From Spirochaetia bacterium (GTDB taxonomy: Bacteria > Spirochaetota > Spirochaetia > CAKZLE01): 64,000 nucleotides of DNA. The translations under genes and the position numbers were made by a program. Position 1 is the first letter of the stretch. The number at the start of each line of letters is the position of its first letter. The stretch is taken from assembly GCA_963677595.1 (NCBI GenBank), contig OY782041.1:3872001-3936000 (forward strand). The letters are read 5' to 3'. This document shows positions 28,757-54,281 of this stretch, one piece after another. The notes beneath the pieces were generated by a model. The model made no database searches. It was not told the origin of the DNA and worked only from the letters and a program-made list of their open reading frames with translations.

Positions 28757-28800
28757 TTGACAGACCGCTAATGAATAGCTAGAATGTTCATAACGTATCA
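28757..28800 (+). promoter_or_regulatory. sigma70 promoter of transketolase operon with operator-like motif at +1
   Basis: TTGACA-17-TAGAAT, overlapped by AATGTTCATAACGTATCA (28783-28800). Confidence 0.75.
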
Positions 28801-28875: not shown

Positions 28876-29712
28876 ATGGATAAAACCGGCATACGCAAAT
28901 TGGAGCTCCAGGCCGCTTATTGCAGAAAAGCAGTTCTGCGGATGGTCAAAGCTAATCATGCAGGTCATCTCGGTCCGGCATTCTCATGCATGGACTTCGT
29001 CACCGCAGTCTATTTTCACGCCATGAAGGTAGACCCTAAGAACCCCAAGTTGCCTGAACGGGACCGTTTCATCCTGTCTGCTGGGCATAAATGTCTTGCA
29101 CAGTATGCTGCACTCTCAGAACTGGGGTTCTTTGATGAGGCTGTCCTCGATACCTTCGGGAGCCTCGATGCGAAGATTCCCGGTCACCCTGACATGCACA
29201 AGCTTCCTGGAGTCGAAGCAAATACCGGTGCATTGGGACATGGTCTCAACCTTGCATGCGGAATGGGGCTTGCCGCCCGGCTTGATGACAACGGATCACG
29301 TGTCTTCGTCATCATGGGTGACGGTGAACTTGCAGAGGGATCTAACTGGGAAGCTGCAGCTGTTGCCGCCCATTACAAACTCGACAATATCGTCGTGATC
29401 GTGGACCAGAACAACCTCCAGATCAGCGGCCGTACCTATGATGTGATGGATTTCACACCGGTAGCAGACCATTTCACCGGTTTCGGCTGGGCTGCTCGAG
29501 AGGTCAACGGACATGATATGGGCGAGATCGTAGACGCACTTGATGCCCTTCCCTTCGAAAAAGGCAAACCCAACCTCATAGTTGCCCATACCACCAAGGG
29601 AAAGGGATGCTCATTTGCAGAAGACCAGGCTTCTTACCATTACTGGAAGACCACCGATGAGACGCTCCTGCAGGCTGAGAAAGAGATAGCAGACATAATA
29701 GAGAGGATGTAG
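28876..29712 (+). CDS. Transketolase, N-terminal (TPP-binding) subunit
   Basis: GHLGPAFS, DRFILSAGH, GHPD, TGALGHG, GDGELAEGSNWEA, TTKGKG. Confidence 0.93.
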   Translation: MDKTGIRKLELQAAYCRKAVLRMVKANHAGHLGPAFSCMDFVTAVYFHAMKVDPKNPKLPERDRFILSAGHKCLAQYAALSELGFFDEAVLDTFGSLDAKIPGHPDMHKLPGVEANTGALGHGLNLACGMGLAARLDDNGSRVFVIMGDGELAEGSNWEAAAVAAHYKLDNIVVIVDQNNLQISGRTYDVMDFTPVADHFTGFGWAAREVNGHDMGEIVDALDALPFEKGKPNLIVAHTTKGKGCSFAEDQASYHYWKTTDETLLQAEKEIADIIERM

Positions 29713-29716: not shown

Positions 29717-30643
29717 ATGAATGTTGTAGATGCAAAGAAAATCTTAGGTGATGTAATCCTCGAAGAAGGAAAGAAAAACAGTAATGTGGTAGTCGTTTCT
29801 ACCGACAGTGCAAACAGGTCTGGACTGACCGATTTCATCGACAGTTTCCCGGAACGATATTATGAGCTCGGCATCATGGAGCAGGCTGCTGTCGGTGTCT
29901 CCTCAGGTCTTGCAACTGCAGGAAAGATACCCGTGTTCGTCGCTCCTGCCATGTTCGTGACTGGACGTCCTTTCGAGTTCTTCAGGATCGACTTGGGATA
30001 CATGAAGCAGAATGCTAAGATGATCGGTAGGAACTGCGGGATCAACTACTCTGACCTCGGACCTACCCACCACGGGCTTGAGGATATCGCGCTGATCCGT
30101 CTCATCCCTGGAGTCGTCATACTAGCTCCTCAGGACGCAGGAGAACTCGAAGGAGCCCTCCATGCCATGATGGAGTATGAAGGACCGGTCTATCTAAGGG
30201 TCAGCACTGCCCCCATCGCAGAACTGTTCGAGAAGGTCCCCTTCAAGATCGGCGAGGGACGCATGATCAGGGATGGTAAAGATGTGACGATCATCACCAC
30301 CGGTGAAATCACCGCCAATGTCATGGGAGCCGTAGACATCCTCACCGAGCAGGGATACGATCCCCAGGTCATCGGTATGCCGACTGTCCAGCCGATTGAT
30401 GCAGAGATGATCAAGGCTGCTGCTGCAAAGACAGGTAAGATCGTGACGGTGGAAGAGCATTTCAAGACTGGTGGGCTTGGTTCTGCCGTTGCTGAGATCT
30501 GCAGCGAATACTGTCCGGTCCCCGTCAAGCGAATCGCCATGCCTGATGCCTATAACGGCTCCGGAACCTATAAGGACATGATCCTGAAGTTCAAACTTGA
30601 TGCCGCAGGGATTGCTGAATCTATTCAAGAATTCCTGAAATAA
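29717..30643 (+). CDS. Transketolase, C-terminal subunit
   Basis: GIMEQ, GPTHH, GPVYLR, TVEEH..GGLGSAV. Confidence 0.93.
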   Translation: MNVVDAKKILGDVILEEGKKNSNVVVVSTDSANRSGLTDFIDSFPERYYELGIMEQAAVGVSSGLATAGKIPVFVAPAMFVTGRPFEFFRIDLGYMKQNAKMIGRNCGINYSDLGPTHHGLEDIALIRLIPGVVILAPQDAGELEGALHAMMEYEGPVYLRVSTAPIAELFEKVPFKIGEGRMIRDGKDVTIITTGEITANVMGAVDILTEQGYDPQVIGMPTVQPIDAEMIKAAAAKTGKIVTVEEHFKTGGLGSAVAEICSEYCPVPVKRIAMPDAYNGSGTYKDMILKFKLDAAGIAESIQEFLK

Positions 30644-30676: not shown

Positions 30677-30707
30677 AGCTGCAGTCCCACCCTACTGGGA
30701 CTGCAGC
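30677..30707 (+). terminator. Terminator of transketolase operon
   Basis: Perfect 13-bp stem AGCTGCAGTCCCA-cctac-TGGGACTGCAGCT. Confidence 0.75.
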
Positions 30708-30809
30708 TTCTTCATGCCACTTCAACCCACCCTCACACAATCTCTCAAACTACCAGCAGCGTGCTCCATGCTTACATCTCACTTGCATGGTGAGACGTTC
30801 TTCGGACAT

Positions 30810-30885: not shown

Positions 30886-32013
30886 TTAGAATCGTACCTG
30901 ATAGATCATCTGTGCATCTTCTTGGGTGAAGGGGACCGGACTGTTCACCAGGAGCCGTTCCTTTGCCATCATCTCTGAGGCAAAGAGCGGTATCTCCTCC
31001 TGCTTCATGCCTAAGGCCCTGAGGAATTGCAACGGCAGGACTTTGGACAGGACCGCTTCGAACTCAAGGAAAAAATCATGTCTTGATGTTTTCACACCAA
31101 GGCGTGTCAGTGGTCTGGCCAGCGTGTCTATGAGCTGGTTCATCCTCTCGTTTTCCACACGTTGGGTATAGAGGTGGAAGACCTGGGAGAAGAACTGGTA
31201 GATCGATACTCCATGGGGTACCTTGTAGTGTTCCCCGAGCGGGTATGCCAAGGCATGGACTGGACCTGCTCCTGCATTGTTGACGGTCACCCCTCCCATG
31301 CAGCTTGCCGTCACGAAGTCCCCAAGGAGTTCCTTCCGATACTCCTCCCCGTTCAGGATGATATCAACGAAACCGTTGATGATCAGGGAACAGGCTTTCA
31401 AGGAATAGGCATCGGTAAAGGGGTTCGCCTTCGGGGACATGAAGGCCTCTGCCGCATGGGCGAGCGCATCGATCGAGCTGCTGTAGAAGATCGTGGGGGG
31501 CAGGCCCGAAAGCAGTTCAGGTATCAGGACTGAATGGTTCGCCGGCATAGCTTCATGGTTCAGGGCTGTCTTCAGGCCGGACTCTGCCATCGTGACGATA
31601 GATCCGTTGGTAACCTCGCTCCCGGTACCACAGGTCGTGGGTACTATGATAAGTCCTTTTCCCTTCACGATCGGGATCTCCCCGTTCATGATGCGCGTGA
31701 TCGGATACGGATCCTTGAGTGAAAGCAGTTTAGCGATATCGATGACCGAACCGCCGCCTATCGCTACGATCCTGCTGCAGGGAATCCCCTGCAGTTCAAG
31801 TGCTATAGCATTGACCATCTCATCAGTCGGCTCCCCGCCACCATACTCATCGCGCAGGATAAGGCTGCACTCCAGTCCAGCCTCTTTGATATACTGTTCA
31901 TAGATGATGGTCTCAGTGAAGATGAGGTCATGCCTGGAGAGCGCGAACTCCCCTGCAAACTTCTTGAAGGTTTCACATCTGTGTATCTGTGGGATAATCT
32001 GTAACTGTTTCAT
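30886..32013 (-). CDS. Iron-containing alcohol dehydrogenase, 4-hydroxybutyrate dehydrogenase-like
   Basis: GEPTDEMV, GGGSVIDIAK, VPTTCGTGSEVT, SSIDALAHAAE, GPVHALAYPLG..Y.VPHG; own promoter TTGACA-17-TACACT at 32065-32093. Confidence 0.85.
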   Translation of the reverse strand: MKQLQIIPQIHRCETFKKFAGEFALSRHDLIFTETIIYEQYIKEAGLECSLILRDEYGGGEPTDEMVNAIALELQGIPCSRIVAIGGGSVIDIAKLLSLKDPYPITRIMNGEIPIVKGKGLIIVPTTCGTGSEVTNGSIVTMAESGLKTALNHEAMPANHSVLIPELLSGLPPTIFYSSSIDALAHAAEAFMSPKANPFTDAYSLKACSLIINGFVDIILNGEEYRKELLGDFVTASCMGGVTVNNAGAGPVHALAYPLGEHYKVPHGVSIYQFFSQVFHLYTQRVENERMNQLIDTLARPLTRLGVKTSRHDFFLEFEAVLSKVLPLQFLRALGMKQEEIPLFASEMMAKERLLVNSPVPFTQEDAQMIYQVRF

Positions 32014-32146
32014 GGCATCCTTCTTGTTCTCTCATGACCGGTCAGAAGGTTTTTATCTACCAACAGTGTACCAAATAACTAGATGCATGTCAATAGAATG
32101 CTTATTTGTGATTATTTTAATGTTTATAACTGATCATAAGAACAGA

Positions 32147-32935
32147 TCAATGATAATACCCGGTATATGCATGCACCAGTTCCCTGAACTGACCGATATC
32201 ATGTCCGTAGAGTATCCGGGCAGCATGCGTTTCCTTGTATTTCAGAATCCTCTCCACAGAACGTGAATAGCCTTCTTGGTCTTCCAGAATCGCAGGGAGT
32301 ATAGGTGGGGGGCCAAGATGACGTGCAGAATAGAGCGCATCGGAAGCCAGCAGGAAACTCCCAGAGTCCTGTAACTCGATCAGGAGCCCAAGCATGCCCC
32401 AGGAATGGCCCGAGCCGAGGTTTATGACTGTCAGGCCGTCAAGTACTTGGTATTCACCATCCTGTTCGCTGACTGTTTTCCAAGTGATATCTGCTTGGAT
32501 CCAGCTCTCGATATCTGAGACAAGATGGGCCCCGAGCTCCTCGCCGGCCTCATACCGGGTCATGGTATTGCGCAGCTCGACCTCACTCACGATCACTTCT
32601 GCGTTGGGGAAGTACTTCAGGCAGCCGGCATGGTCAAGATGCAGATGAGAAGCGACCACATAGCGAATATCTTCGAGTCGGTATCCCAGCCGTTCCAGGC
32701 TGTTCGGCAGGAGCTGTGCCTCATCTGCTATATACGGGAACTGCCGGAAAGCTTCAGGCCAGTTACCTAACATGCCTTCTGGATCACAGGCAGCATCGAA
32801 AAGTACCAATCCTTCCGGATGGTCTATCAGCACGGAATAGACTGGTATGTCTATCCACTTCTCTTCACTGCCACCCGTATAGATGGTGACTTCCGGCATC
32901 CTGATGATACCATTATCGAGAACGTACATGTTCAT
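32147..32935 (-). CDS. MBL-fold lactonase, GcL/AaL/AhlS-type N-acyl-homoserine lactonase family
   Basis: YVLDNG, VLIDHPEG, DIRYVVASHLHLDHAGCL, GSGHSWGMLGL, LASDALY, YGHD, C-terminal GYY; start 32935 (alternatives 32953/32956). Confidence 0.9.
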   Translation of the reverse strand: MNMYVLDNGIIRMPEVTIYTGGSEEKWIDIPVYSVLIDHPEGLVLFDAACDPEGMLGNWPEAFRQFPYIADEAQLLPNSLERLGYRLEDIRYVVASHLHLDHAGCLKYFPNAEVIVSEVELRNTMTRYEAGEELGAHLVSDIESWIQADITWKTVSEQDGEYQVLDGLTVINLGSGHSWGMLGLLIELQDSGSFLLASDALYSARHLGPPPILPAILEDQEGYSRSVERILKYKETHAARILYGHDIGQFRELVHAYTGYYH

Positions 32936-32952
32936 GTCATCACCTTGCAGCA

Positions 32953-33918
32953 TCAATTGCCTTCGAAGAACCGCTTGGGGTTCTCCGTACTCATCTTCAT
33001 GAGCAGGTCCAGGTCCACACCCATCTCTACAAGTTTGGGGAATACAACATTATGAAGGAAGAGGAATCGTTCGGGATTGAGTCCCTTTACGTATGCCAGT
33101 GTCTCTTCGGGAAGGGTATCGAACATCGTGGAAATGGACATGAAGTCATGCGAGAGGAGCATGATGTCAGACATACCTGCATCGATCATCCGCTTGATGG
33201 TCTTGATCCGGGTCTCGGTACTGACCGCGAAGTTTCCCGGGAAGGTGATCAGGGGGAGCCTGTCCACACCGATCCAGCAGCCCTGGTCTGCTACCCACTT
33301 GATATAGTCCATATCGGTGGTTTCCAGGATATGGTCGATCTTCACGCGGCTCATATCGAGGCCTTCTTCCTGCAGTATACGAAGCTGGTGCCTGCCTGAT
33401 TCTGCCTGCGGATAGGAATGGAGCATCACCGGGGCCCCAGTCTCCTTCGCTGCGATCGCAACGGCCCGGTGGAGCAGGTCACGTGCAGGGGTAAGCCCCT
33501 CACGGTCCATGGCAGCCTTGATGATCCCGGCCTTGATCCCGGTCTCGCCTACCCCTTTCTGGACATCATCGATGAACAGTGAAGCGATCTTCTCAGCCGT
33601 GAACCTTCCCAGCGTCGGCGCGAACTCCTGCCACCAGCCGGTACAGGCCACGATATGCACACCCGTTGCCTCTGAAGCAGCCTTCAGGCGCTTCACATCA
33701 CGTCCGAGGTCGATCGGGGAAGCTTCTATGACGGACTTGATCCCGACACTCTTCATCTCGTTGAGGTCCCCAATCACCACCTCATCCACATCATCCCGAT
33801 AGAGCTGCGGATAGTTCTCCGGCACCCCTATCGAGGAGGAATAGATATGCTCATGCATCAGGGTATAGCCAAGTTCATCAGGTGTGATCGGTCCGGTGAC
33901 CGTCTGGATCATCTTCAT
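32953..33918 (-). CDS. Phosphotriesterase-like lactonase (PTE family), copy 1
   Basis: QTVTGPI, TLMHEH, GIIKAA (carboxy-Lys), MLHS, IDH, LSHD: complete binuclear site. Confidence 0.9.
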   Translation of the reverse strand: MKMIQTVTGPITPDELGYTLMHEHIYSSSIGVPENYPQLYRDDVDEVVIGDLNEMKSVGIKSVIEASPIDLGRDVKRLKAASEATGVHIVACTGWWQEFAPTLGRFTAEKIASLFIDDVQKGVGETGIKAGIIKAAMDREGLTPARDLLHRAVAIAAKETGAPVMLHSYPQAESGRHQLRILQEEGLDMSRVKIDHILETTDMDYIKWVADQGCWIGVDRLPLITFPGNFAVSTETRIKTIKRMIDAGMSDIMLLSHDFMSISTMFDTLPEETLAYVKGLNPERFLFLHNVVFPKLVEMGVDLDLLMKMSTENPKRFFEGN

Positions 33919-34027: not shown

Positions 34028-34061
34028 GACAAGCATAATCTCTAAAGATCATGCTTGTCAA
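34028..34061 (-). promoter_or_regulatory. Promoter of PTE-lactonase operon embedded in a 32-bp palindrome
   Basis: GACAAGCATaATCTcTAaAGATcATGCTTGTC (14 of 16 pairs match) covering TTGACA-18-TATGCT. Confidence 0.7.
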
Positions 34062-34080: not shown

Positions 34081-34119
34081 AAAAAATGTTTGCGGAAAGG
34101 CCTATGCCCTCCCGCAAAC
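34081..34119 (-). terminator. Terminator after rpiB-like gene
   Basis: GTTTGCGG...CCGCAAAC stem followed by T-run on minus strand. Confidence 0.7.
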
Positions 34120-34127: not shown

Positions 34128-34601
34128 CTACTTGAAGACTGCCCCTTCGTATCCGTCCCACATGGCTGCTCCGTCCTTGATCCGTTTGACTCTGAATTCA
34201 GGGAGTCCTTCTCCCCATTTGGTCTGGATGAAAACATCTGCCATCTCGCATGCCATCCTGAGACTGATAGTGGTTCCGCCTAATGCAAGTATATTCGCAT
34301 CATTCACGATCCGGCTGTCACGTGCAGCCCATACGCTCTCTACTCGGGCACATCGTGCGCCTTTGTTCTTGTTCGCCGCGATGCTGATACCGATTCCGGT
34401 ACCGCAAACGACGATCCCGAGTTCTGCTGCATCTGATGTAACTGCCTCTGCAACATTCCGGGCTACATCCATGTACATCACTGGATTGTCAGGATCTGTG
34501 GTCCCGAGGTCAGCAACATCATGTCCCTGTTCAACAAGGTGTTTCTTCAAATCTCCGATCAGTCCGAAACCGCCGGGATCTGCTCCAATCGCTAATTTCA
34601 T
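34128..34601 (-). CDS. RpiB/LacA/LacB family sugar isomerase (non-canonical)
   Basis: CGTGIGISIAANK, NDANILALG; GADPGG in place of GSDHAG. Confidence 0.88.
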   Translation of the reverse strand: MKLAIGADPGGFGLIGDLKKHLVEQGHDVADLGTTDPDNPVMYMDVARNVAEAVTSDAAELGIVVCGTGIGISIAANKNKGARCARVESVWAARDSRIVNDANILALGGTTISLRMACEMADVFIQTKWGEGLPEFRVKRIKDGAAMWDGYEGAVFK

Positions 34602-34663: not shown

Positions 34664-35974
34664 CTACATCATTCCCGTGATCCTCGGAAGCCACTCGACG
34701 ATCCCCGGAACCAATAGCAGCAGGATAAGGTGTGCCGCATCCGCTATGAGGAAGGGTGCGATACCCTTGAAGACCCTCGAAAGCGGCACATCCTTATAGA
34801 GCCCCTTCAGGAAGAAGGCCGTCATGCCCATAGGCGGGGTGAGCCCCCCGATATCACCCATACGTACCATGACGACGCCGAACCATACAGCCGAGAACCC
34901 GCAGGCCTGTACGATCGGCAGGAAGATACCGACGGTAAGCAATACCATCGACATGACTTCAACAACACAACCTAATGCGATATAGATCATCATGATGATG
35001 ACCATCAGCAGCATCGTCGGGAACTGCATGGCCATGACTGTGTCAGAAAGCCAGAACGGCAAACCGCTTACGGCGATCATCTGCTTCAGCACGTTTGCGC
35101 CAACGATGAGAAAGTAGATCATCCCGATCATCTTCGCTGAAGAGATCATTACTTGTTTCAGCTTCTCACGATCGAGTCTTCTTTTCAGCAGTGCCAGGAT
35201 GAACGCACCTAATGCACCGATGGATCCAGCCTCTGTGGGGGTGAACCAACCTGCGAATAGTCCTCCAAGCACGAGGATGACGATGAGGATGATCCCAAGG
35301 CTTCCCGGGAGGGACTTGATCTTCTCCTCCATCGAGGTTTTCGGTCCACGCGGTCCATAACTCGGGTTTATCTTGCAGTTGATCGCGATGACGATCATAT
35401 AGAATACCGCAAGGATCAAACCGGGAATAATACCAGCGATCAGGAGCGTACCGATTGAAGTACCTGAGATCATACCGTAAATAATGAACATGGCACTCGG
35501 TGGTATAAGGTCTCCCAACTCACTTCCTGCCGCGACCGACCCGATCGCGAGTTCCGTCGAGTACTTGTACTTCCTCATCTGCGGGATGGCGATCGCCCCG
35601 ATACTCACGATAGCTGCCCAGGGGAACGCAGTAACAGCCGCAAAGACTGCACAGGCACCGATAGTCGCGATCGCCAAGCCTCCAGGGATCTGGCCGAGCC
35701 AGGTCGAAGCAGTCTTGTAGAGGTCAGAACCCATCTCCGAGACCGTGATGATCTGAGCCATGAGGATGAACATCGGCAATACTGCGAAGTCATAACTCGA
35801 TACGACCGAGAATACGTTCGTTCCAAGGACAGTGATCGCTCCCCTCCAGCTCGTCATCAGGACTAACCCGATGAATCCAGTGGTCAGCATAGAGAAACCG
35901 ATCTTTACACCCATCATGGAAAGGATGAAGAAAGCTGCTATACAGATCAGCCCGATAGCAATAGCACTAGTCAT
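34664..35974 (-). CDS. dctM: TRAP transporter large permease (DctM)
   Basis: About 12 TM segments, LPMFILM, LIPPS, FTPTEA, GLTPPMG. Confidence 0.92.
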   Translation of the reverse strand: MTSAIAIGLICIAAFFILSMMGVKIGFSMLTTGFIGLVLMTSWRGAITVLGTNVFSVVSSYDFAVLPMFILMAQIITVSEMGSDLYKTASTWLGQIPGGLAIATIGACAVFAAVTAFPWAAIVSIGAIAIPQMRKYKYSTELAIGSVAAGSELGDLIPPSAMFIIYGMISGTSIGTLLIAGIIPGLILAVFYMIVIAINCKINPSYGPRGPKTSMEEKIKSLPGSLGIILIVILVLGGLFAGWFTPTEAGSIGALGAFILALLKRRLDREKLKQVMISSAKMIGMIYFLIVGANVLKQMIAVSGLPFWLSDTVMAMQFPTMLLMVIIMMIYIALGCVVEVMSMVLLTVGIFLPIVQACGFSAVWFGVVMVRMGDIGGLTPPMGMTAFFLKGLYKDVPLSRVFKGIAPFLIADAAHLILLLLVPGIVEWLPRITGMM

Positions 35975-36536
35975 TATTCTGCTCCTCTCCTCCAAGTAGA
36001 ACTATGGAATCGTCTTGTTCATCGAATATCGTCGCGACTTCTTTTCCCATCGCCAGCCTGATAAAATCTACTGTCTCGATGATTATGGCAAGGGCCAGAA
36101 GAACCAGGCCGAAGACCCAGACCCACCGAAAGATCCAGGTAGGGAGATTCCCGGAGAGCGTCTTCTCGAAAACCAGGGTCTTCGTATAGGCATACTTCCC
36201 GCCTGCATAGATCATCATGAAGATAATACCGATACTGATGAGCCCTGATATTGACTCACTTACCTTCCTCATACCGGATGGCATCTTTCCAAGGACTAAA
36301 TCCATTACAGTATGGTCCTGAAGCAATGCACAATATGGAATAGCAAGAGATGCCGCAAAGGCTGCAGAAAGACCTGCAAGGTCATAGATATAACGCATAG
36401 CCAGGCCGAACGGCCTGATAAAGATATTGATCACCATGAAGGTGGTACCCACGATCAGCGCGACACCTGCGATGATGCCCAGCAGATTGGCTATGGTCTT
36501 AGTCCACTTGATCTTCAACCTGTCATATTCACCCAT
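35967..36536 (-). CDS. dctQ: TRAP transporter small permease (DctQ)
   Basis: Four TM segments, HTVMDLV motif, located between dctP and dctM. Confidence 0.85.
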   Translation of the reverse strand: MGEYDRLKIKWTKTIANLLGIIAGVALIVGTTFMVINIFIRPFGLAMRYIYDLAGLSAAFAASLAIPYCALLQDHTVMDLVLGKMPSGMRKVSESISGLISIGIIFMMIYAGGKYAYTKTLVFEKTLSGNLPTWIFRWVWVFGLVLLALAIIIETVDFIRLAMGKEVATIFDEQDDSIVLLGGEEQNND

Positions 36537-36593
36537 AAGCCTTCTTCCTCCAAAGAAAAACTGTAAACTAGGACGCTAAACTTTAGACATTCA

Positions 36594-36630
36594 ACAATAC
36601 AGGACCTGCTCATGCAGGATCCTGTATTGT
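36594..36630 (-). terminator. Intra-operon stem-loop after dctP
   Basis: ACAATACAGGA-CCTGC tcat GCAGG-a-TCCTGTATTGT. Confidence 0.65.
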
Positions 36631-36652
36631 GATTTAAAGTATTTAGCGATTC

Positions 36653-37699
36653 TTAATTATACTTAGCAGAATATTCTGCCACTGCCTTCACGAAGGCAGT
36701 ACCGGGAAGCCCCTGTGCATCAAGTTCTTTAGCAACCTTCAGGTTTGCATTCATGAGAACTTGGTTGAACTCAGCAGCTGCTGCTGCATCAGGATAGATC
36801 GCTGTTGTCCCATGATTCTCAACTGCCCAGTCCAATGCAGATGCCTCTGAAGCCTGGAAACCCTTAGCATTCTCAGCCTCCACGAAGGAAGCCTGGCTGT
36901 TGATGATATCCTTGATGTCATCCGGAAGAGCGTTCCAAGAGTCCTTGTTGATTATATGTCCAGGACCGGTAGCATATGCGATATTGACCATGTTCACATA
37001 CTTACATACTTCAGCGAAATTACATGACTGTAATGTCTCGGTCGGGATCATCATACCGTCGAAGAGGTTTTTCTGCAGTGAGCTGTAGACCTCTGGGAAG
37101 GGTGCGTTGATCGGGGTTGCGCCACAGTCGAGCACGAACTGATTGAAGTCAGCCTCACACCAGATCTGCATACCCTTCATGTCAGCAACCTTGGTGATAG
37201 GTTTATTGACTGAAAGGATCTGGTATACCGTACCACCGTTGAATGCCTGGGCTGGTACATATACATCCTTGAACTCATCTCTAAGTTCCGGGAAACCGTT
37301 CCACAGATCATAGGAGACATCTGCTTCATGACCTACCGGTACACCTGTCGTGATTGCTTTCCAGTGCTCGGAGAGAACAAAACCTGAAGAAGCAAATCGG
37401 TGGACATCCGCGATATCAGCGATGCCGTCTACGAGCTGCTCATAGGCATTGAGGCTGTCTACCAGAGTGTCATCATAGTAAAATGTGAATGTGAGCCTGC
37501 CGTCAGTCTCATCAGTGATCTTCTGTGCCCAAGCTCTCCATGCAGCTGACATGAAGTTGTTCTCGCTGATGGCAAGACTGAATTTCCAATTGATCGGTTT
37601 GTCGCTTGCGGTCTCACTCTGTCCACCTGCGAATGCACTGACTGCCCCAAAGAGCAGCAACGAAATGACCAGGATCGAAATGATTTTTCTCATACTCAT
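36653..37699 (-). CDS. dctP: TRAP transporter substrate-binding protein (DctP)
   Basis: Spirochete-type signal (SAFAGGQSE), GATPINAPFPEVYSSLQ, INKDSWNALPDD. Confidence 0.9.
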   Translation of the reverse strand: MSMRKIISILVISLLLFGAVSAFAGGQSETASDKPINWKFSLAISENNFMSAAWRAWAQKITDETDGRLTFTFYYDDTLVDSLNAYEQLVDGIADIADVHRFASSGFVLSEHWKAITTGVPVGHEADVSYDLWNGFPELRDEFKDVYVPAQAFNGGTVYQILSVNKPITKVADMKGMQIWCEADFNQFVLDCGATPINAPFPEVYSSLQKNLFDGMMIPTETLQSCNFAEVCKYVNMVNIAYATGPGHIINKDSWNALPDDIKDIINSQASFVEAENAKGFQASEASALDWAVENHGTTAIYPDAAAAAEFNQVLMNANLKVAKELDAQGLPGTAFVKAVAEYSAKYN

Positions 37700-38538
37700 A
37701 CCTTCCTTTTAAATATGTTCCTAATCGCGGCACAGTCTTCTGCAGCTATCTGCATGAAGTCCCCGCCTTGATTTATAGGTTCCGCGTAATAGTAGCTCTC
37801 TGATATGACCCAGCCGTCAAACCCGGTGGCCAGGACGATATCAGCGGACTCCTGTATCCTTGAATCACCCTTTCCCATCAGGATCGGGGCAGGACGACCG
37901 ATGAGGAACTCTTCCCTCCTCGTGTCCTTCACATGGTAGTGGTCGATGATCTCAGGATCTGTCGCCATCATGTCTGCGAGCATCTCAGGCGCCTCCCCGG
38001 AATCGTAGATGTAGGGGTTGCAGGTATCGAAACAGACCTTCAGCCCGGTACCGGTGCGCTCCCGCATCCTGAAGATATCGTCGTTCGAGAGATTGGACTC
38101 GAACGCGATGACGATCCCCTTCTCTGCACCCAGCGAGCAGGCATAGGAGAGGTTATCGGCCACATTGCGGAAGACTTCCTCATCCCCTGCTCCGATGAAG
38201 CCCGAGATCATCACGACCGGGACCTTCATGTCCACTGCGGCTGTAACGGCAGAAAGGATATCCATGCGGGCACGATCAGAATCAGGGGTGCCTTTTGACG
38301 CATAGATCGTCTTCTCCTGGTACATCGTCCTGGTATGGATGGAGTGGAAGCTCACCCCGGCAGTTTCAGCTGCCTGGAGGTACTCCTGCTGCACACGCCG
38401 ATGGTTCAGGGGATATGCCATCTTCTTGCCGCCGCAGTCCCCGAGCTGGAGACCGTCAAACCCGATCTCAGCTGCCAGCCTGACAGCAAAGGGCCCCGTC
38501 ATGGGAAGTGCCCATTCACAAACGCCTATCTGTATCAT
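37696..38538 (-). CDS. Sugar phosphate isomerase/epimerase (AP-endonuclease-2 TIM barrel)
   Basis: GFDGLQL, IAFES, VCFDTCN, HYHVKD, GFDGWVISE; promoter TTGACA-16-TATAAT at 38650-38677. Confidence 0.85.
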   Translation of the reverse strand: MIQIGVCEWALPMTGPFAVRLAAEIGFDGLQLGDCGGKKMAYPLNHRRVQQEYLQAAETAGVSFHSIHTRTMYQEKTIYASKGTPDSDRARMDILSAVTAAVDMKVPVVMISGFIGAGDEEVFRNVADNLSYACSLGAEKGIVIAFESNLSNDDIFRMRERTGTGLKVCFDTCNPYIYDSGEAPEMLADMMATDPEIIDHYHVKDTRREEFLIGRPAPILMGKGDSRIQESADIVLATGFDGWVISESYYYAEPINQGGDFMQIAAEDCAAIRNIFKRKV

Positions 38539-38829: not shown

Positions 38830-39780
38830 TCAGCCTATCTGGATCTTCCTGGCATCCGTGTTGATCGACATCACGACGATGATCAGGATGACGCCATTCA
38901 CGACAGCTTCGGTCCAGAACGGGGCTCCCATGATGCTGATGCCGTTGAAGGTGATGCCGAGCATGATGAGCGATGCAACCATTCCCGGCACATTGTACCG
39001 TCCCGTGGTATGGGTCGTGATGCTGAAGAAGACGACCGCAAGACCCGGCAGCAGGTAGGATGGGCCGGTATCTGGATAGGCGTTACCGGTCCTCGCGAGC
39101 GTGATCAGTCCGCCGACCCCGATATAGAAGGAGGCCAGGACGAAGGCCGCGAACCTGACCAGTTTTGTCTTGATACCGGCGAGGTAGGCCACCCGCTCTG
39201 AGAGGCCGACCGCATAGATGTGCTTACCCAGCGGGGTATGTTCCATGATGTAGTAGAGGCTTGCGGCACAGATGAAGAAGATCCATACTGTGATGTTCAG
39301 GTTGAGGAACTTCACCCGGAACATCGACAGGACTGCATCCGGAACAACGCCGTTGATGGCAGAGCCGTTGTTCATACTCAGGCTGATACCGTAGAAGATG
39401 GTCCCGACTCCCAGCGTCGAGATGGTTGACGGTACTTTCAGGACGACATTGATGATCCCGTTCACGGCACCCAAGGCCACGGCGAAGAGGATCATGGCAG
39501 CGAACGCCAGCCCGATCGGTAAGCCGCTCTCGGCCAGCCGCGCCCCGAACATGATCGTGAGCCCGAGCATGTAGCCAAGCGAGATATCGAACTCACCGAC
39601 TGCCAGCGGGATCATGGCGCCGAGGGCGAAGAAGCCTACGATGACCTGCCCTGTTGCGAGCATGTTGATATTCCTCCAGCTTAAGAAGAATTCCGACAGG
39701 AAGGAGAAGAGCACCATGAGCAGCAGACTGACTCCGATGACACCATAGTTCTTTAGGATATGAAATTTTGAGGTAATCAT
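38830..39780 (-). CDS. Sugar ABC transporter permease (RbsC type), operon 1
   Basis: GEFDIS, PSTISTLG, TPLGKHIYAVG...AYLAGI; ATGA overlap with ATPase stop. Confidence 0.92.
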   Translation of the reverse strand: MITSKFHILKNYGVIGVSLLLMVLFSFLSEFFLSWRNINMLATGQVIVGFFALGAMIPLAVGEFDISLGYMLGLTIMFGARLAESGLPIGLAFAAMILFAVALGAVNGIINVVLKVPSTISTLGVGTIFYGISLSMNNGSAINGVVPDAVLSMFRVKFLNLNITVWIFFICAASLYYIMEHTPLGKHIYAVGLSERVAYLAGIKTKLVRFAAFVLASFYIGVGGLITLARTGNAYPDTGPSYLLPGLAVVFFSITTHTTGRYNVPGMVASLIMLGITFNGISIMGAPFWTEAVVNGVILIIVVMSINTDARKIQIG

Positions 39781-41333
39781 GCGTAACACCACCTTGCAAC
39801 AGATTCTCGGGTAAGGGAGCCATCCTCATGGGTCAGCTCGGCAGCAATCTTTCCATGCTGCAGTACGATAACGCGGGTACAGATAAGAGCGAGCTGCTCA
39901 GGTTCTGTCGAGAAGATGACCACGCCGACATGGTTCTCCGAGGCACTCTTGATCGCCTCGAACACGGTGATCCTCGAAGCCGGGTCCACACCGTAGGTCG
40001 GGTCATCGAGAACGAAGACTGAAGGCGACAGGGAGAGCCACTTCGCGAGGATCGCCTTCTGCTGGTTACCCCCGGAGAACTTCCCGAACTTCATGTTCAT
40101 ATCGTGCCCTGGGTTCACATCGAAGACGTTGATACAGGTCTTCATGACCTTCTTAGCAAGTTTCCTGTTGTGCCAGAACTTTATCTCGTTGGGCATCAGC
40201 ATGTTGTCCCGCAGTGAACAGGACATGATGCCGCCGTTTCGGATCCGGTCACAGGGGAGCATGTTGAGTCCCTGTTTGTACAGAGTCCTCGGGGAAGTGC
40301 TCATCGGCATCTCATGGCCATTCACGACGAAGTCACCGGACTTGCGCTGCATCATCCCGCCTAACAGTGACGGAAGTTCACCTACCCCGCTGTCCCCGAG
40401 TCCGACGAACCCGATGATCTCATTGTTCTTGACCGTGAAGCTCAGTCCGTCGATGTTCTTCGCCTGGACATCTTTGAACTCAAGGACCGTCTTCACGACA
40501 TCTTCATGGGGCTTGCGGTCGAGCATCTTCCAGATATCGACGAGATCGAGCTCCTCATCAGCAGCTTTCAGCTCATCGGCGGTATCATCATGCTTCTTGA
40601 GCATATTGGCGATGACGACCTCCTCGGTCGCTTCCTCTGAGAGGCCGCTGAAGACGACCTTCCCGCCGTTGAGGATCGTGACATCATCACAGATCTTCTT
40701 GATCTCCTTGAGGCGGTGGGTGACGGTTATGACCGGGATCCCCATGTCTGCGATCTTGCGGACATGCTCGAGGAAGAACTCTGCCTCTGCCTCAGGGATC
40801 GAGGCATCGGCCTCGTCAAGGATGAGGGCTTTCGTACGCTTGAGTTCCTCGCCCTTCCCGATTGCGATCGCCATGGCGATCATGTTCCGTTCCGATGCCT
40901 TCAGGTTTGTGGTCAGGGTCTTCGGGCTGATCCCGATGTTGAACACCTCGAAGAGTTCGGTGACGTAATCATAGACATGCTTCCAGTCTATGTTGCCGAA
41001 CCGGTTCTTGGGATAACCCTTGAACAGGGCCACACATTCCGCGATGGTGAACGTATCGATCAGGGGGGTCTCCTGGTGGACGACCCGGATCCCCAGGTCA
41101 TATGCCACGCTCGGGTTCTCGATCCTGCCGAGGACCGTCCCGTCGATGTTTATCTCTGAACCGCAGTCCCGGTCCGGCTGGTATACCCCGGTGAGGAATT
41201 TCACCAGGGTGGACTTCCCGCTGCCGTTGGCCCCAAGGACTGCATGCACCCTGTTCGGCTTGAACTCGACACTCACATCATCGAGGGCCTTCACACCGGG
41301 AAATGAAACTGATATATGGTTAGCTGTTAGCAT
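39777..41333 (-). CDS. Sugar ABC transporter ATP-binding protein (CUT2, two NBDs), operon 1
   Basis: FPGVKALD, GANGSGKS, FSGGNQQK, LDDPTYGVD. Confidence 0.94.
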   Translation of the reverse strand: MLTANHISVSFPGVKALDDVSVEFKPNRVHAVLGANGSGKSTLVKFLTGVYQPDRDCGSEINIDGTVLGRIENPSVAYDLGIRVVHQETPLIDTFTIAECVALFKGYPKNRFGNIDWKHVYDYVTELFEVFNIGISPKTLTTNLKASERNMIAMAIAIGKGEELKRTKALILDEADASIPEAEAEFFLEHVRKIADMGIPVITVTHRLKEIKKICDDVTILNGGKVVFSGLSEEATEEVVIANMLKKHDDTADELKAADEELDLVDIWKMLDRKPHEDVVKTVLEFKDVQAKNIDGLSFTVKNNEIIGFVGLGDSGVGELPSLLGGMMQRKSGDFVVNGHEMPMSTSPRTLYKQGLNMLPCDRIRNGGIMSCSLRDNMLMPNEIKFWHNRKLAKKVMKTCINVFDVNPGHDMNMKFGKFSGGNQQKAILAKWLSLSPSVFVLDDPTYGVDPASRITVFEAIKSASENHVGVVIFSTEPEQLALICTRVIVLQHGKIAAELTHEDGSLTRESVARWCYA

Positions 41334-41378
41334 GTCATCCCCTTTCTCACTTCTTCGTTACACATGAGTATCACTATC

Positions 41379-42356
41379 TTATTCATCAGCCTTGTCCTTG
41401 TTTTGGTCAAGTTTGTTCGCAAGGAGCATGGCAACGACAAGGATGACACCTTCATAGATGTAGCTCGCCCATGGCGGTGCACCGACGATGGTCATGCCGT
41501 TACTGCCGATCCCCACGAAGAGGATGGCAAGGATGAGGCCGCCAATATTGAAGTACCCGGGCTTGAAGGAGATCTTGCTTAAGAATACGATCGCATAGGC
41601 CGGAAGCAGTACGGAGTGTCCGTACGCAGCACTTGCAGCACCCAGTTTCCCAAGCAGGAGGAATGCACCGATCGCGGTGAAGAAACCTGCTGCCGAGAAT
41701 GCGAAGATCCTTACGTAATTCGTCTTGATCCCAGCCAGGAATGAAGCTTTTTCTGAACTTCCCACAGAATAGAGCTTCCTGCCTAGCGGTCTGTGATTCA
41801 ACAGAAAATAGACGACCAAACATAAGAACAGCCAGAAGACGACTGAATACCCGATCTGTCCCCATCTGCCCTGGGCAAATGTACTGATTGCTCTCGGGAT
41901 CCCATGATTGAGCACCATACCGCCGCTCACTGCCTGGGTCAGACCGGAAAGGGTCAACCCGACACTCAGAGTGACGATGAAAGAGCTGATGCTGAACTTC
42001 ACGGCGATGATCCCGTTGATGAACCCCGACAGGGTACCGGCTGCGATCATGACCAGGACGAGAACGAGTGCGCTGTTTACGCCGTTCTCGGCTAGTTTCG
42101 CACCGAGCACCATGCAGAAGGATGTCAGGTAGCCTAACGAGAGGTCGAACTCACCCACTACGAGTATGAACATCGCACCAAGGGCCACACAGCCTATGGT
42201 AACCTGGGTGATGAGGATGTTGCCGAAGTTCTGCATACTGAAGAACGTATCAGAAAGGGCACTGAACACTGCTATGATGACTAGCAGCAGGAACACCATC
42301 CCGTATTTGTAGAATAGAGTCTTGATATCGAAGGACCCAGCATTATTTTCTCGCAT
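41379..42356 (-). CDS. Sugar ABC transporter permease, operon 1
   Basis: GEFDLS, SSFIVTL, LGRKLYSVG..ASFLAGI. Confidence 0.92.
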   Translation of the reverse strand: MRENNAGSFDIKTLFYKYGMVFLLLVIIAVFSALSDTFFSMQNFGNILITQVTIGCVALGAMFILVVGEFDLSLGYLTSFCMVLGAKLAENGVNSALVLVLVMIAAGTLSGFINGIIAVKFSISSFIVTLSVGLTLSGLTQAVSGGMVLNHGIPRAISTFAQGRWGQIGYSVVFWLFLCLVVYFLLNHRPLGRKLYSVGSSEKASFLAGIKTNYVRIFAFSAAGFFTAIGAFLLLGKLGAASAAYGHSVLLPAYAIVFLSKISFKPGYFNIGGLILAILFVGIGSNGMTIVGAPPWASYIYEGVILVVAMLLANKLDQNKDKADE

Positions 42357-42376
42357 ACACTAAACACTCCAAATAT

Positions 42377-42404
42377 AAGATGAGAGGCTTTCGCCTCTCA
42401 TCTT
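42377..42404 (-). terminator. Stem-loop after SBP gene 1 (GAAA tetraloop on mRNA)
   Basis: Perfect 12-bp stem AAGATGAGAGGC-tttc-GCCTCTCATCTT. Confidence 0.7.
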
Positions 42405-42424
42405 GTAATCTTATCTAAACTCTA

Positions 42425-43537
42425 TCAATCCCAGAGCGCGTAGAATGCACTCTTATAATCATAGGCCGGGGTCCAAGCCTCACCCTCCGGCGGGAGCAGT
42501 GACTTGTCGACGATCGCCATCGGGAGGTTCTCGTTGTGCGGGGTGATCAGCGGCTGCCCGTTGAGGACTCGAATTGCCTGATCAACTTCAGCGTACCCGA
42601 GGTAGGTCGAATCATAGGCTGCTGTACCAGCTGCTATGGGAGATCTCTTGATGAGTGACATCATCTCAGTCGTACCGAGCACACTAACGACCTTCACCTC
42701 AGTGAGGTCAGCTGCTTCGAGTGCAGCGATAGGGCCGAGGGCTGCCGGATCAAACGGGATGAACACATAATCGACCTGCGGGTGTGACATGACATACCCG
42801 GTTACCATCCTGTTGAGGGTATCGCCGAGCTGGTCAAAGCTGAAGACCTGGGGTTTCGGGTCGAAGGTGATGTTCCGTGCTGTCAGTTCATCGATGAGTC
42901 CTTCCTCGAACAGGTCTACTGATGGGAGACCGGGGCAGGAGAAGATCACGACATTAGCCTTGCCGTTGGAATCCTCATCCATCCATGCTGCCATGGTCTG
43001 TCCGAGACCATAATAATACGGACCGACATCATAGAGGAAGTTCAGGTTCCCTGCACCAACATCAAGGATCGGGTTCGGGTCATCTGTACCGCTCGAACCG
43101 CTGACGATAGGGATACCAGCAGTCTTCGCAGCATTCAAGCCTTCCTGGAAGCTTCGCGGGTCAAGGGAAATAGTCATGATGACATCCGCATTCCATGCTA
43201 TCGCATTCAGGATAGCCTTGTTCCCTCCCTCCGGAGTTCCCCTTCCATCAAAGATCTGGACATCCCAGTCATATCGTTCGCCGATCTCGACCATGGCATC
43301 GCCAGGGACGATACAACCGGAAAGTGAAGCCATTGCTGGAACAATTGCTACCTTGATACCCCTTGGAGCTTTTGCCTTGACTGTGGGTCCTGGGAACCCT
43401 TCAGTCGTCTTCGCCGGGGCTGCTGCCTGTACTTCAGCCTTCGTATCAGCTGCTTTTTCCTGCTGGCCGCCTGCCATCACGGAAAAACTGACCAGCATGA
43501 TCAGCAAGATTGCCAGAATCCTCTTACATCTCAACAT
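42425..43537 (-). CDS. Sugar ABC transporter substrate-binding protein, operon 1
   Basis: Signal MLRCKRILAILL...MAGGQQE from ATG 43537 (GAGGAGG RBS); periplasmic type I motifs (FDGRG, AGIPIV, PFDPAA). Confidence 0.9.
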   Translation of the reverse strand: MLRCKRILAILLIMLVSFSVMAGGQQEKAADTKAEVQAAAPAKTTEGFPGPTVKAKAPRGIKVAIVPAMASLSGCIVPGDAMVEIGERYDWDVQIFDGRGTPEGGNKAILNAIAWNADVIMTISLDPRSFQEGLNAAKTAGIPIVSGSSGTDDPNPILDVGAGNLNFLYDVGPYYYGLGQTMAAWMDEDSNGKANVVIFSCPGLPSVDLFEEGLIDELTARNITFDPKPQVFSFDQLGDTLNRMVTGYVMSHPQVDYVFIPFDPAALGPIAALEAADLTEVKVVSVLGTTEMMSLIKRSPIAAGTAAYDSTYLGYAEVDQAIRVLNGQPLITPHNENLPMAIVDKSLLPPEGEAWTPAYDYKSAFYALWD

Positions 43538-43746: not shown

Positions 43747-43864
43747 GGAATTGTTTTTATCAAAATAGTTTACATTTATGCTAATAATGACCTACTTTTC
43801 TGTTCTTTCCTGTTCATACAATGGGTATCACTCACTCCTGTTCATAGGAGTTTGGATGATATAG

Positions 43865-43937: not shown

Positions 43938-44474
43938 CTATTTCAGCTCCAGACCTACCTTCTCATCGACGAAATCAGGGTTGAATACTTTAGCCAGGGG
44001 TCCCACGACCGTATCACCGCATTCGAACATGACTCCTAGCTGTTCACGAACGTCATAGAATTTACAGGTCTTACCCTGGGCTGACGCATCAAGCATGACT
44101 GGTATACCATTCTCCTCCATCGCCTCACTGAACCCGTCACGGTCTTCCAGCAGAACGTTCACATGATGGATCCCGGGGCCGTGTTCCCGCAGCCAGGTCG
44201 CATACATATCATCCCCATCCTTGTCGAGCGGTTCGATGATCTCGAAATCAAGGCCGCCCATGTCGAACCGTACGATATTGATCCAGAGTTCTGACTCCTC
44301 CCCATAGTATTTTGGGTTCTCGTACTTGCCTACTGCAGCCAGATCCCTGGTATTCTTCTGAATGATGGTAGACTCATCTATATTGAAATATTTCTGCCAT
44401 TGTGCAAGTGTGGCCTTAGCGTCCCGGACGCAAACGCCGACTTGGAACATACTCTTCATATTTGTCTTCTTCAT
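43938..44474 (-). CDS. VOC family protein (methylmalonyl-CoA epimerase/glyoxalase-like)
   Basis: FQVGVCVRD, FEIIEPL, HGPGIHHV, GVMFE metal ligands; start 44474 with GGAGG RBS (alternative 44486). Confidence 0.85.
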   Translation of the reverse strand: MKKTNMKSMFQVGVCVRDAKATLAQWQKYFNIDESTIIQKNTRDLAAVGKYENPKYYGEESELWINIVRFDMGGLDFEIIEPLDKDGDDMYATWLREHGPGIHHVNVLLEDRDGFSEAMEENGIPVMLDASAQGKTCKFYDVREQLGVMFECGDTVVGPLAKVFNPDFVDEKVGLELK

Positions 44475-44515
44475 CTCTTCCTCCATATACGACTGTTTGG
44501 TTTCTGCTGTATTGT

Positions 44516-45481
44516 TCAGCAGCCCTCGAAGAACCGTCTTGGGTTCTCATAGCAGATCTTGTTGAGCACGGTTTCATCGACGCCCATTTCGAGCAGTTTG
44601 ACGATCACGTAGTCCTTGATGAACAGCCAGTGTTGGGGAGCAAGGGATTCGATGAACTCGAGTTCCTCAGGGCTCTTCGTGTTCCACATGGTGGATAAGA
44701 CACCGGTATCATGTGAGAGGAGCATCTGGTCAGCCATCCCGGCATCTATCATCTGCTTGACCATCTTGATCCGTGTCTCCGTGGCAACACCGTGCTCATG
44801 GGGAAGGTGCAGACACGGCAGCCGTTCCACTCCCAACCAGACGCCCTGGTCTGCGATCCACTTGATATAGTCCAGATCGGTGGTCTCGAGGCAGTGGTCG
44901 ACCTTCACGCGGTTCATGTCGATCCCCTCTGCCTTGAGGAACTCGAGCTGGAACCGTGCAGTCTGCTTGAATGCCAGGGTATGCATGAATACCGGGGTAC
45001 CCGTCTCATTCGAGGCGATCGCCGCGGCCCGGTGCTGGATCTCCCGTCCCTTCGTGGGGCCTTCCATATCCATGACACCCTTGATCATACCTGCTTTGAT
45101 ATCAGTACCTGACATACCCTTCTTCAGGTCCTTGATCATGCAGGCAGCCAGGTCATCGGGAGTATAGTTCCCGAGCATGGGACTTAAGTCCATGAAAAAA
45201 CCCGTGGTCGCCACGATGTTCATCCCCGATTTTTCAGCCAGTTCCTTCAGGGTCCTCGGGTCCCGTCCCAGGTCATACGGAGCTGTATCGACGATCAGCT
45301 CGATACCATTTGCCTTCAGGTCCTTAAGATCCTTCAGGGCTTTCTCATAATACCCTTTTACATAGAGTTCAGGATAGTTTTCCGGGATGCCAGCTGCTGA
45401 AGCGACGACATGCTCATGCATGAGGGAGAACCCTATCTTCGAGGTCTCAAGCGGACCGGTCACTGTCTGTACATATTTCAT
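44516..45481 (-). CDS. Phosphotriesterase-like lactonase (PTE family), copy 2
   Basis: SLMHEH, GMIKG, FMHT, VDH, LSHD; colinear with 32953-33918. Confidence 0.9.
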   Translation of the reverse strand: MKYVQTVTGPLETSKIGFSLMHEHVVASAAGIPENYPELYVKGYYEKALKDLKDLKANGIELIVDTAPYDLGRDPRTLKELAEKSGMNIVATTGFFMDLSPMLGNYTPDDLAACMIKDLKKGMSGTDIKAGMIKGVMDMEGPTKGREIQHRAAAIASNETGTPVFMHTLAFKQTARFQLEFLKAEGIDMNRVKVDHCLETTDLDYIKWIADQGVWLGVERLPCLHLPHEHGVATETRIKMVKQMIDAGMADQMLLSHDTGVLSTMWNTKSPEELEFIESLAPQHWLFIKDYVIVKLLEMGVDETVLNKICYENPRRFFEGC

Positions 45482-48009: not shown

Positions 48010-48035
48010 TTTTCTTCTCCCTTTTCCCAGTACAT

Positions 48036-48992: not shown

Positions 48993-49027
48993 TGAAATCA
49001 GCCTCCATTCCATTGATTTCAAGAATA

Positions 49028-49057
49028 TTTGCAGGGAGAGAAACCTCTCCCTGCAAA
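49028..49057 (-). terminator. Stem-loop after SBP gene 2
   Basis: Perfect 13-bp stem TTTGCAGGGAGAG-aaac-CTCTCCCTGCAAA. Confidence 0.7.
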
Positions 49058-49090
49058 CGATCTGATAATATCTATGAATGTAGGTTCAGA

Positions 49091-53852: not shown

Positions 53853-54281
53853 TCAAGGGTCGATCCGGTAGAGGTCTACCCGCTCCTGCACACCGGAGGC
53901 CGACACCAGGAGGATGTTGGCGCAGGGGGTATCCTCAGCAGTCCTGATGAAGAACCGTGCATCCGCAGCCCGCTTCCTGAACTCAGGCAGGTCGGCATAG
54001 CCGATCTCCTGCTTCGTCAGCAATCCCGTGACCTCATCATGCATGTGGGGGTTGGCCGTCTTGACGCACTCCATGAGTACCGCTTCCTGCACGACCATCT
54101 CACCTATGACGGCCTTGAGTGTCTGCATGAGGCCCGGTATGCCCCGAACGAGGGCTAAGTCTATCCTGACTGCGCCCTGTGGAATGGGAAAGCCCATGTC
54201 GCAGATCACGAATGAGTCGAAATGTCCTAAGGCAGTCAATTCCCGAATGAGTCCCGGGTGCAGTATGCCGTCCTTCTTCAT
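53853..54281 (-). CDS. rbsD: RbsD/FucU family pyranase (mutarotase)
   Basis: MKK.GILH..L, LGH.D...ICD.GFPIP, RIDLAL, IRT.E.TP.ANI. Confidence 0.85.
   Translation of the reverse strand: MKKDGILHPGLIRELTALGHFDSFVICDMGFPIPQGAVRIDLALVRGIPGLMQTLKAVIGEMVVQEAVLMECVKTANPHMHDEVTGLLTKQEIGYADLPEFRKRAADARFFIRTAEDTPCANILLVSASGVQERVDLYRIDP

Follow-up and report, generated by a model that had tools for sequence, protein, structure and literature searches.

The Agrobacterium attKLM/blcABC locus combines a metallo-beta-lactamase-fold (MBL) lactonase with an iron-dependent alcohol dehydrogenase (Fe-ADH) and a semialdehyde dehydrogenase. In the sulfo-transketolase (sulfo-TK) pathway for sulfoquinovose (SqwGH, SqwI, SqwF), as outlined in PMC9594981, C2 units are removed from a sugar that carries no phosphate by a transketolase acting with a PF02502 isomerase and a PF00465 ADH, and the aldehyde that remains is reduced. 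In the L-glucose/L-galactose pathway of Luteolibacter LG18, in the part of PMC12632266 that describes it, an aldonate is oxidised at C5 to a 5-keto-aldonate and then epimerised, and rbsD adjoins a tagatose-3-epimerase-like gene. Here we analysed a 64,000-nt stretch of the genome of a Spirochaetia bacterium (contig OY782041.1; "the window", in whose numbering all coordinates are given), in which genes for a phosphotriesterase-family (PTE) hydrolase, an MBL lactonase and an Fe-ADH form the end of a 27-kb island (27.9-55.2 kb; G+C 0.51 versus 0.55 for the genome). The gene content of the island and of related clusters favours, on balance, a kinase-free pathway that would open a sugar-derived lactone, strip C2 units with a thiamine enzyme and reduce the leftover oxo-acid; among the systems compared, the sulfo-TK pathway appears closest to it in logic.

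The trio consists of three intact open reading frames on the minus strand, each with a complete set of metal ligands, in agreement with the initial annotation of this DNA, which had described two adjacent lactonase folds with an ADH in series:

32953..33918, minus strand: PTE1, phosphotriesterase-family metallohydrolase of an uncharacterised subfamily (321 aa; W96, R220)
32147..32935, minus strand: GcL/AhlS-like MBL lactonase (262 aa; N-terminal loop 9 residues shorter)
30886..32013, minus strand: Fe-ADH, relative of clostridial 4-hydroxybutyrate (4HB) dehydrogenases, cluster-specific clade (375 aa)
34088..34119, minus strand: 14-bp terminator-like hairpin after rpiB, upstream of the PTE1 promoter-like site
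34032..34061, minus strand: sigma-70-like promoter site before PTE1-MBL (consensus match)
32065..32093, minus strand: sigma-70-like promoter site before the ADH gene (10/12 matches, extended -10)
30677..30708, no strand: perfect 13-bp hairpin between the convergent transketolase and ADH genes, read from the sequence

The PTE1 and MBL genes are separated by 17 bp and are probably carried on one transcript, with the MBL start placed at the ATG behind an AAGGTGA site (a TTG at 32956 is the mechanical start). The gap between the MBL and ADH genes measures 133 bp, is AT-rich and holds a promoter-like site with two TGATHA words nearby, although consensus promoter matches are overall not commoner than in shuffles (18 versus 13.2 ± 4.1). 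A three-gene operon was rejected because the ADH gene has this separate promoter-like site and because the gene order is not conserved. The series proposed at first is broken before the ADH gene, and PTE1 has a site of its own.

To place the trio among related loci, we used an alignment of 56 PTE sequences to collect 157 loci, of which 28 were assigned to the clade of the window PTEs and 129 are more distant. With partner families counted at set identity thresholds, at least three of ten families were present in 21 of the 28 clade loci and in none of the 129 others, and the same held for loci longer than 9 kb (21/22 versus 0/79). Vicinal oxygen chelate (VOC) proteins were found in 22 clade loci, TIM barrels and the TRAP binding protein DctP in 15 each, MBL enzymes in 13, RbsD in seven and the ADH in five, while zinc dehydrogenases, of which the island has none, occur in 21. 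Gene order is reshuffled: the PTE-MBL-ADH series recurs in none of the clade loci, and among the 13 other loci with both a PTE and an MBL gene, none has the two side by side. The end module is either a pair of transketolases plus RpiB or an E1/E2/E3 complex plus a lipoate ligase, the two alternating between clusters. Some E1-type clusters also carry crotonase, acyl-CoA dehydrogenase, electron-transfer flavoprotein (ETF) and an AbfD-like gene, AbfD being a member of the HpaB Pfam families. In five loci (L033:16092-20959, L206, L208, L209 and L030) the complex has a short E2 catalytic gene and adjoins AbfD-like, acyl-CoA dehydrogenase and ETF genes, with no CoA-transferase in the stretches read; this suggests that at E1-type loci acyl-CoA is made directly by the complex. 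Five kinase baits gave no match in the 28 clade loci, in six flanking loci or in the island.

Firmicutes make up most of the named carriers (Emergencia, Oscillibacter, Suipraeoptans, CAG:145, Absicoccus), and the cluster also occurs in metagenomes; the carriers are anaerobes of gut and digester, one of them cultured (Emergencia timonensis SN18). The cluster is rare, being absent from 398 sampled genomes of the Clostridia class and from 250 of the Emergencia family other than the centre genome, with two genomes unscored. Within the host's own lineage, a scan of 300 further genomes of the phylum gave no PTE match at E 1e-40, and in 60 relatives no MBL match exceeding 31% spanned most of the protein; on this basis an origin native to this lineage was rejected. 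A search of the open-access literature, supplements excluded, returned no description of this cluster.

The ADH carries the iron-site ligands D182, H186, H253 and H267 (His3Asp), and its best PDB match is the Clostridium viride 4HB dehydrogenase Cvir-Hbd2 (255 bits; the next entry scores 119 and butanol dehydrogenase 35). In Cvir-Hbd2, according to the portion of PMC13495136 that deals with these residues, R348 recruits the carboxylate and Y256 assists catalysis. Equivalents of both are retained in 7/7 cluster ADHs (R353 and Y257 in the window), whereas N34 is replaced by Glu and N270 by Ile or Val in all seven (E34 and I271 in the window). The cluster ADHs form their own seven-row clade (SH-aLRT 100) within a 15-row 4HB-dehydrogenase-like group (SH-aLRT 100), apart from seven other Fe-ADHs of this genome. 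The window ADH belongs with the 4HB dehydrogenases of clostridia, apart from butanol and glycerol dehydrogenases; grouping with the latter two was what the initial annotation had named as an argument against its reading. Of the features of subfamily cd14860, a name used in PMC13495136, it shows the His3Asp site, the Y256 and R348 equivalents and the grouping, but not N34/N270 or a 4HB-CoA context.

The neighbours of these ADHs differ from those of the other members of the group. Cluster-type ADH genes lie directly beside a transketolase gene in L043, L104, L109 and L204 and directly beside an E1-alpha gene in L028 and L206, so that a thiamine enzyme is the neighbour in 6/6 other loci inspected and a lactonase in 0/6; the convergent transketolase of the window is 62-63% identical to the one that follows the ADH in L109 and L204. 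Among the eight non-cluster ADHs of the 15-row group, six lie beside AbfD-like or CoA-transferase genes and one stands alone. The eighth (L214, 9876-15369) belongs to an unrelated cluster with a split transketolase, a zinc dehydrogenase and an aldehyde dehydrogenase. Baits for AbfD-like (4HB-CoA dehydratase) and CoA-transferase proteins had no match in this genome, and 4HB fermentation by this organism was rejected on that ground. From these residues and neighbours, the ADH would be an omega-oxo-acid reductase with a substrate akin to, but probably not, succinic semialdehyde; the earlier aside that it may act reductively or serve a transketolase agrees with its position beside thiamine enzymes. 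No aldehyde dehydrogenase, and thus no AttK-like semialdehyde dehydrogenase, is annotated among the 26 island proteins, again as first noted, and the aldehyde dehydrogenase matches of the genome lie at least 200 kb from the island, save one weak match.

The MBL protein has the complete catalytic set (H97-x-H99-x-D101-H102, H177, D199, Y202 and H245), including equivalents of GcL D122 and Y223; its best PDB match is GcL (245 bits; AaL, 237 bits), and it is 43-48% identical to Bacilli AhlS-type proteins. GcL is presented in the relevant section of PMC11423328 as a generalist lactonase with a ring-binding subsite and a second subsite that holds the amide and the start of the acyl chain. The ring-binding subsite is kept in the window MBL (I11, M13, I30 and Y202 for GcL M20, M22, F48 and Y223), while in the N-acyl subsite W26 and M86 are lost and F87, L121 and I237 are kept. 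The shorter N-terminal loop recognised at the outset corresponds to a 9-residue gap relative to GcL, giving 36 residues against 45 in 14/14 named Bacilli AhlS-like proteins. The protein also scores below the curated cut-offs of AhlS (NF047976, 281.5 versus 475 bits) and AttM (NF045700, 126 versus 390 bits), and it groups in a tree with short-loop enzymes from anaerobes, among them all 8 cluster MBLs included, apart from the Bacilli AhlS set. Side activity on N-acyl-homoserine lactones (AHLs) and gamma-butyrolactone (GBL) is likely, but a signal-degrading role is not indicated by gene context.

PTE1 matches PF02126 with 227 bits and has the binuclear site (H, H, carboxy-Lys, H, H, D) of phosphotriesterase-like lactonases (PLLs), its ligands H22, H24, K134, H167, H196 and D258 being invariant in 56/56 aligned sequences. 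With PLLs of the PPH/QsdA type and with OPH it further shares an Arg after the strand-7 Asp, and it is equally distant from OPH and from the PLL-like reference (33-34% identity to each), the latter being a single Nonomuraea protein that we labelled as such, in a tree from which QsdA is absent. At the position of OPH Trp131, where a Tyr supports lactone binding and lactonase activity in PLLs according to the statement available from PMC4338136, PTE1 has W96 and its paralogue PTE2 F96, and Tyr occurs in 0/25 rows of the clade. This weakens, but does not exclude, lactonase activity as a prediction for PTE1, as the three other Bacilli PTE-family references also lack the Tyr; the view that both hydrolases are plausible lactonases stands. 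The loop-7 span is 21-22 residues (21 for PTE1), compared to 16 in the PLL-like reference and 30 in OPH, and PTE1 and PTE2 fall in a fully supported clade (100/100; 25 rows) separate from that reference, and the comparison with QsdA made initially was not supported. Scores against the OPH profile NF041153 (174.5 bits, cut-off 500) and the phospho-furanose lactonase profile NF045706 (46.6 bits, cut-off 630) are likewise below threshold. The predicted model (pLDDT 97) best matches OPH (Z 44.4, root-mean-square deviation 1.9 A over 316 residues), in a structure library so rich in OPH that the top 50 rows are all OPH variants. By its sequence features PTE1 is neither a PPH/QsdA-type lactonase nor OPH, and it is predicted to be a ring-opening hydrolase; its clade may be the sister group of OPH, with weak tree support (87/68).

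A second, large and uncharacterised PTE subfamily came to light in Chloroflexota and marine Gammaproteobacteria (L137, L083, L150, L035 and others). Its loop 7 is short and PLL-like (span 15 in 26/37 rows), Trp stands at the OPH Trp131 position in 28/37 rows, and identity to OPH reaches 41-43%, compared to 34% between OPH and the PLL-like reference; at the same weak support of 87/68, the subfamily may lie nearer the origin of OPH than known PLLs.

From gene content, co-occurrence, clades and residues we infer each reaction of the favoured kinase-free pathway, and their order, as follows. Substrates would be imported by the TRAP and ATP-binding cassette (ABC) systems, and zinc dehydrogenases, TIM barrels and VOC enzymes would funnel several stereoisomers by redox reactions and epimerisation, as the many DctP, dehydrogenase, TIM barrel, VOC and PTE paralogues per locus suggest. 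The PTE and MBL hydrolases would then open a lactone ring, leaving a carboxylate in place of the sulfonate, and polyol-type dehydrogenases would oxidise the product to a ketol acid, with TIM barrels and RbsD epimerising and opening rings in a manner comparable to the Luteolibacter L-glucose pathway. Transketolase A would transfer a C2 unit, RpiB would isomerise and transketolase B would make a second transfer, a step for which the E1/E2/E3 complex would substitute in gut Firmicutes; finally, the Fe-ADH would reduce the residual aldehyde-acid with NADH and the product would be exported. Candidate substrates are aldonolactones or deoxy-aldonolactones, ascorbate breakdown products and cyclitols. 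We counted both the sulfo-TK and the Luteolibacter LG18 pathways as support for a kinase-free sugar-lactone route, although each differs from the cluster. Like the former, the cluster has a transketolase, a PF02502 isomerase and a PF00465 Fe-ADH and no substrate kinase, but no sulfoquinovosidase or SqvD isomerase is annotated in the island or among the families common to at least three clade loci, to which this comparison was confined, nor a FucI-type isomerase in the island, and the cluster adds a second transketolase, lactonases, VOC proteins, TIM barrels, zinc dehydrogenases and the E1-complex variants. The Luteolibacter pathway, in the account cited above, continues by a dehydratase, a kinase and an aldolase, whereas none of these of known type occurs in the cluster, which has transketolases instead.

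A more specific version, which we put forward tentatively, is a carboxy-transketolase counterpart of the sulfo-TK pathway, in which the carboxylate from lactone hydrolysis would replace the sulfonate or phosphate, the route would end in two transketolases or the E1 complex, and aldonolactones would arise directly, without glutathione, from cyclic 2-keto-sugars (osones from ascorbate or Maillard breakdown) by the action of VOC enzymes. If true, both the GcL/AhlS-type "quorum-quenching" lactonases and a PTE subfamily would gain a native function in metabolism, within an uncharacterised catabolic pathway of gut and digester anaerobes. Each family is already known, and the TK/RpiB/ADH logic has a precedent; for the combination and the subfamilies, no named or solved member came up in the searches made. 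If the reading is right, the cluster offers a way to find out whether lactonases labelled as quorum-quenching in fact serve sugar-lactone catabolism, and it supplies natural PTE sequences between lactonase-type PLLs and OPH.

VOC and TIM-barrel epimerases that act on cyclitols are known in ValD and AcbO, and degradation of cyclitols (inositol isomers, methyl-inositols, quercitols) would give many of the same families a task: dehydrogenases, TIM barrels and VOC proteins would form inososes and epimerise them, ring opening of a diketo-inositol (or its lactone) by the hydrolases would yield a 5-keto-hexonate, and the TK/ADH tail would come next. The scyllo-inosose 3-dehydrogenase IolM is indeed the top NCBIfam match for 5/6 cluster dehydrogenases tested, but at 148-186 bits against a cut-off of 450 and in a near tie with threonine dehydrogenase. 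An ABC binding protein faintly matches a rhizopine-binding family (E 1e-4), and a neutral polyol would suit the W-C-E of DctP in place of the carboxylate-binding Arg expected there; yet the MBL retains a lactonase active site with 245 bits to GcL, and RbsD in 7/28 loci points to a ring-chain sugar, so that we consider cyclitols doubtful as the substrate. A substrate not derived from carbohydrate, for instance a furanone, a pyrone or another small heterocyclic or aromatic-like compound on which the PTE would act as an esterase or some other kind of hydrolase rather than a lactonase, is in our judgement unlikely: carbohydrate families are represented by RbsD, RpiB, DeoR, two transketolases and sugar-type ABC importers, and although the nearest TRAP structures bind aromatic acids, these similarities amount to no more than 21-24%. 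The Trp of PTE1 at the OPH position and the OPH-like model fit such a compound, tempered by the OPH-rich library, as does the crotonase, acyl-CoA dehydrogenase, ETF and AbfD-like content of E1-type clusters.

The interpretation given initially, an attKLM-like module for lactone scavenging or quorum quenching in which two lactonases open AHLs or GBL and the ADH turns over 4HB, now appears quite improbable as the main role. It draws on the closeness of the MBL to GcL/AaL with the ring-binding subsite kept, on the generalist character of GcL itself (as stated in PMC11423328) and on a 4HB dehydrogenase as the closest solved relative of the ADH, and an MBL lactonase near an Fe-ADH does recall attKLM/blcABC. 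Against it, the order is not conserved (PTE-MBL adjacency 0/13 and ADH-lactonase adjacency 0/6 in other loci), the ADH travels with thiamine enzymes, the MBL falls below the AhlS and AttM cut-offs and has lost W26 and M86 of the N-acyl subsite, 4HB baits have no match in the genome and no aldehyde dehydrogenase is linked. No LuxR-type domain was found in the genome (95% complete); a search for LuxI had no match anywhere, its controls likewise having none.

Several observations weigh against the kinase-free sugar-lactone pathway that we favour. The 28 clade loci include near-duplicates and represent about 16 lineages by our grouping, and identity thresholds favour close relatives; the kinase baits were limited to FGGY, PfkB and PfkA types. 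A satellite locus of this genome (described below) borders on an FGGY kinase gene and on ascorbate-6-phosphate genes, and the island itself contains a class II aldolase. The ADH is not a constant member, its cluster type being found in 4/10 cluster genomes searched, whose completeness is not stated. The PTE has no Tyr of the kind that supports PLL lactonase activity. The nearest TRAP structures (21-24% identity) bind aromatic acids rather than sugars, the ABC and TRAP binding proteins have no close solved relative (22-24% identity) to name a ligand, and for the TIM barrel there is no solved relative giving one.

Upstream of the trio, the island comprises transport, sugar-isomerising and regulatory genes, and the convergent transketolase lies on its other side:

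27952-28599: ACT-domain protein, flanking the cluster genes; no match among the 157 related loci
28876..29712, plus strand: split transketolase B, N-terminal subunit, 62-63% identical to TK-B of three other clusters
29717..30643, plus strand: split transketolase B, C-terminal subunit, SDLGPTH motif with Leu where canonical transketolases have Asp
34128..34601, minus strand: RpiB/LacAB-family isomerase
34664..37699, minus strand: TRAP transporter DctM, DctQ and DctP (DctP at 36653-37699)
37696..38538, minus strand: xylose-isomerase-like TIM barrel (PF01261)
38830..43537, minus strand: sugar-type ABC importer 1 (two permeases, ATPase, binding protein)
43938..44486, minus strand: VOC protein, glyoxalase / methylmalonyl-CoA epimerase-like (Q15, E82, H107)
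44516..45481, minus strand: PTE2, paralogue of PTE1 (50% identical; F96)
45509..50185, minus strand: sugar-type ABC importer 2, paralogue of importer 1 (44-55% identity)
50473..52874, minus strand: two major facilitator superfamily (MFS) transporters, the first with 24-25% relatives in 3/28 clade loci
52922-53764: class II aldolase; no match among the 157 related loci
53853..54281, minus strand: RbsD/FucU-family ring-opening mutarotase
54387..55148, minus strand: DeoR-family regulator, 41-54% identical to regulators in 6/28 clade loci

In the DctP family (the window protein and 17 homologues, with up to three or four paralogues per locus), W180-C181-E182 and D184 are invariant, and the W-C-E lies where a carboxylate-binding Arg would be expected; the unusual Cys might react with an aldehyde or dicarbonyl ligand. 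The predicted DctP model has a pLDDT of 88, and structure searches with DctP, the ABC binding protein, the TIM barrel and the VOC protein returned only distant or unnamed matches.

The island's longest inverted repeat is formed by the promoters of TK-B (28754-28800) and ABC importer 1 (43703-43749), over 47 nt at 70% identity. TGATHA words, a motif chosen from the promoters of this genome, number 52 versus 21.4 expected in nine TK/ABC-type loci of other species, 14 versus 16.4 in seven E1-type loci and 13 versus 19.5 in nine control loci, and are enriched in DeoR-type clusters; single promoters are not significant (ADH, 2 versus 0.43), and TGATHA as an operator is a lead only.

At the transketolase position D469, Leu is present in 4/4 TK-B and Asn in 6/6 TK-A sequences; the change was rejected as a diagnostic, as only 2/9 unrelated split transketolases of the genome keep Asp. 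Cluster members missing from the island were found elsewhere in the genome, namely dehydrogenase A (81%; two relatives are named "D-arabinitol dehydrogenase" by a source), transketolase A (84%) and dehydrogenase B (67-69%). Orthologues of the zinc dehydrogenases lie with transketolase A, an RpiB paralogue (86%), a VOC protein and a TIM barrel at about 1.0 Mb, while a further dehydrogenase accompanies a TRAP system at 3.43 Mb. The region near 1.0 Mb comprises two stretches:

996.8-1005.3 kb (satellite locus L178): dehydrogenases A and C, TIM barrel, Fe-S aldo-keto reductase, VOC, transketolase A, RpiB, MFS transporter, aldehyde:ferredoxin oxidoreductase
1006-1013 kb (L224:1386-7970): L-ascorbate utilisation genes (UlaG, AraD/UlaF-like, FGGY kinase, two ula-like reading frames), then a three-gene transporter that is not a phosphotransferase system

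The aldehyde:ferredoxin oxidoreductase of the satellite could oxidise the aldehyde that the ADH reduces. UlaG scores 649 bits as ascorbate-6-phosphate lactonase (cut-off 306), and this genome is the only one in which it and the ula-like genes adjoin the satellite locus. The genome as a whole encodes at least ten split transketolase pairs and has 15 DctM matches.

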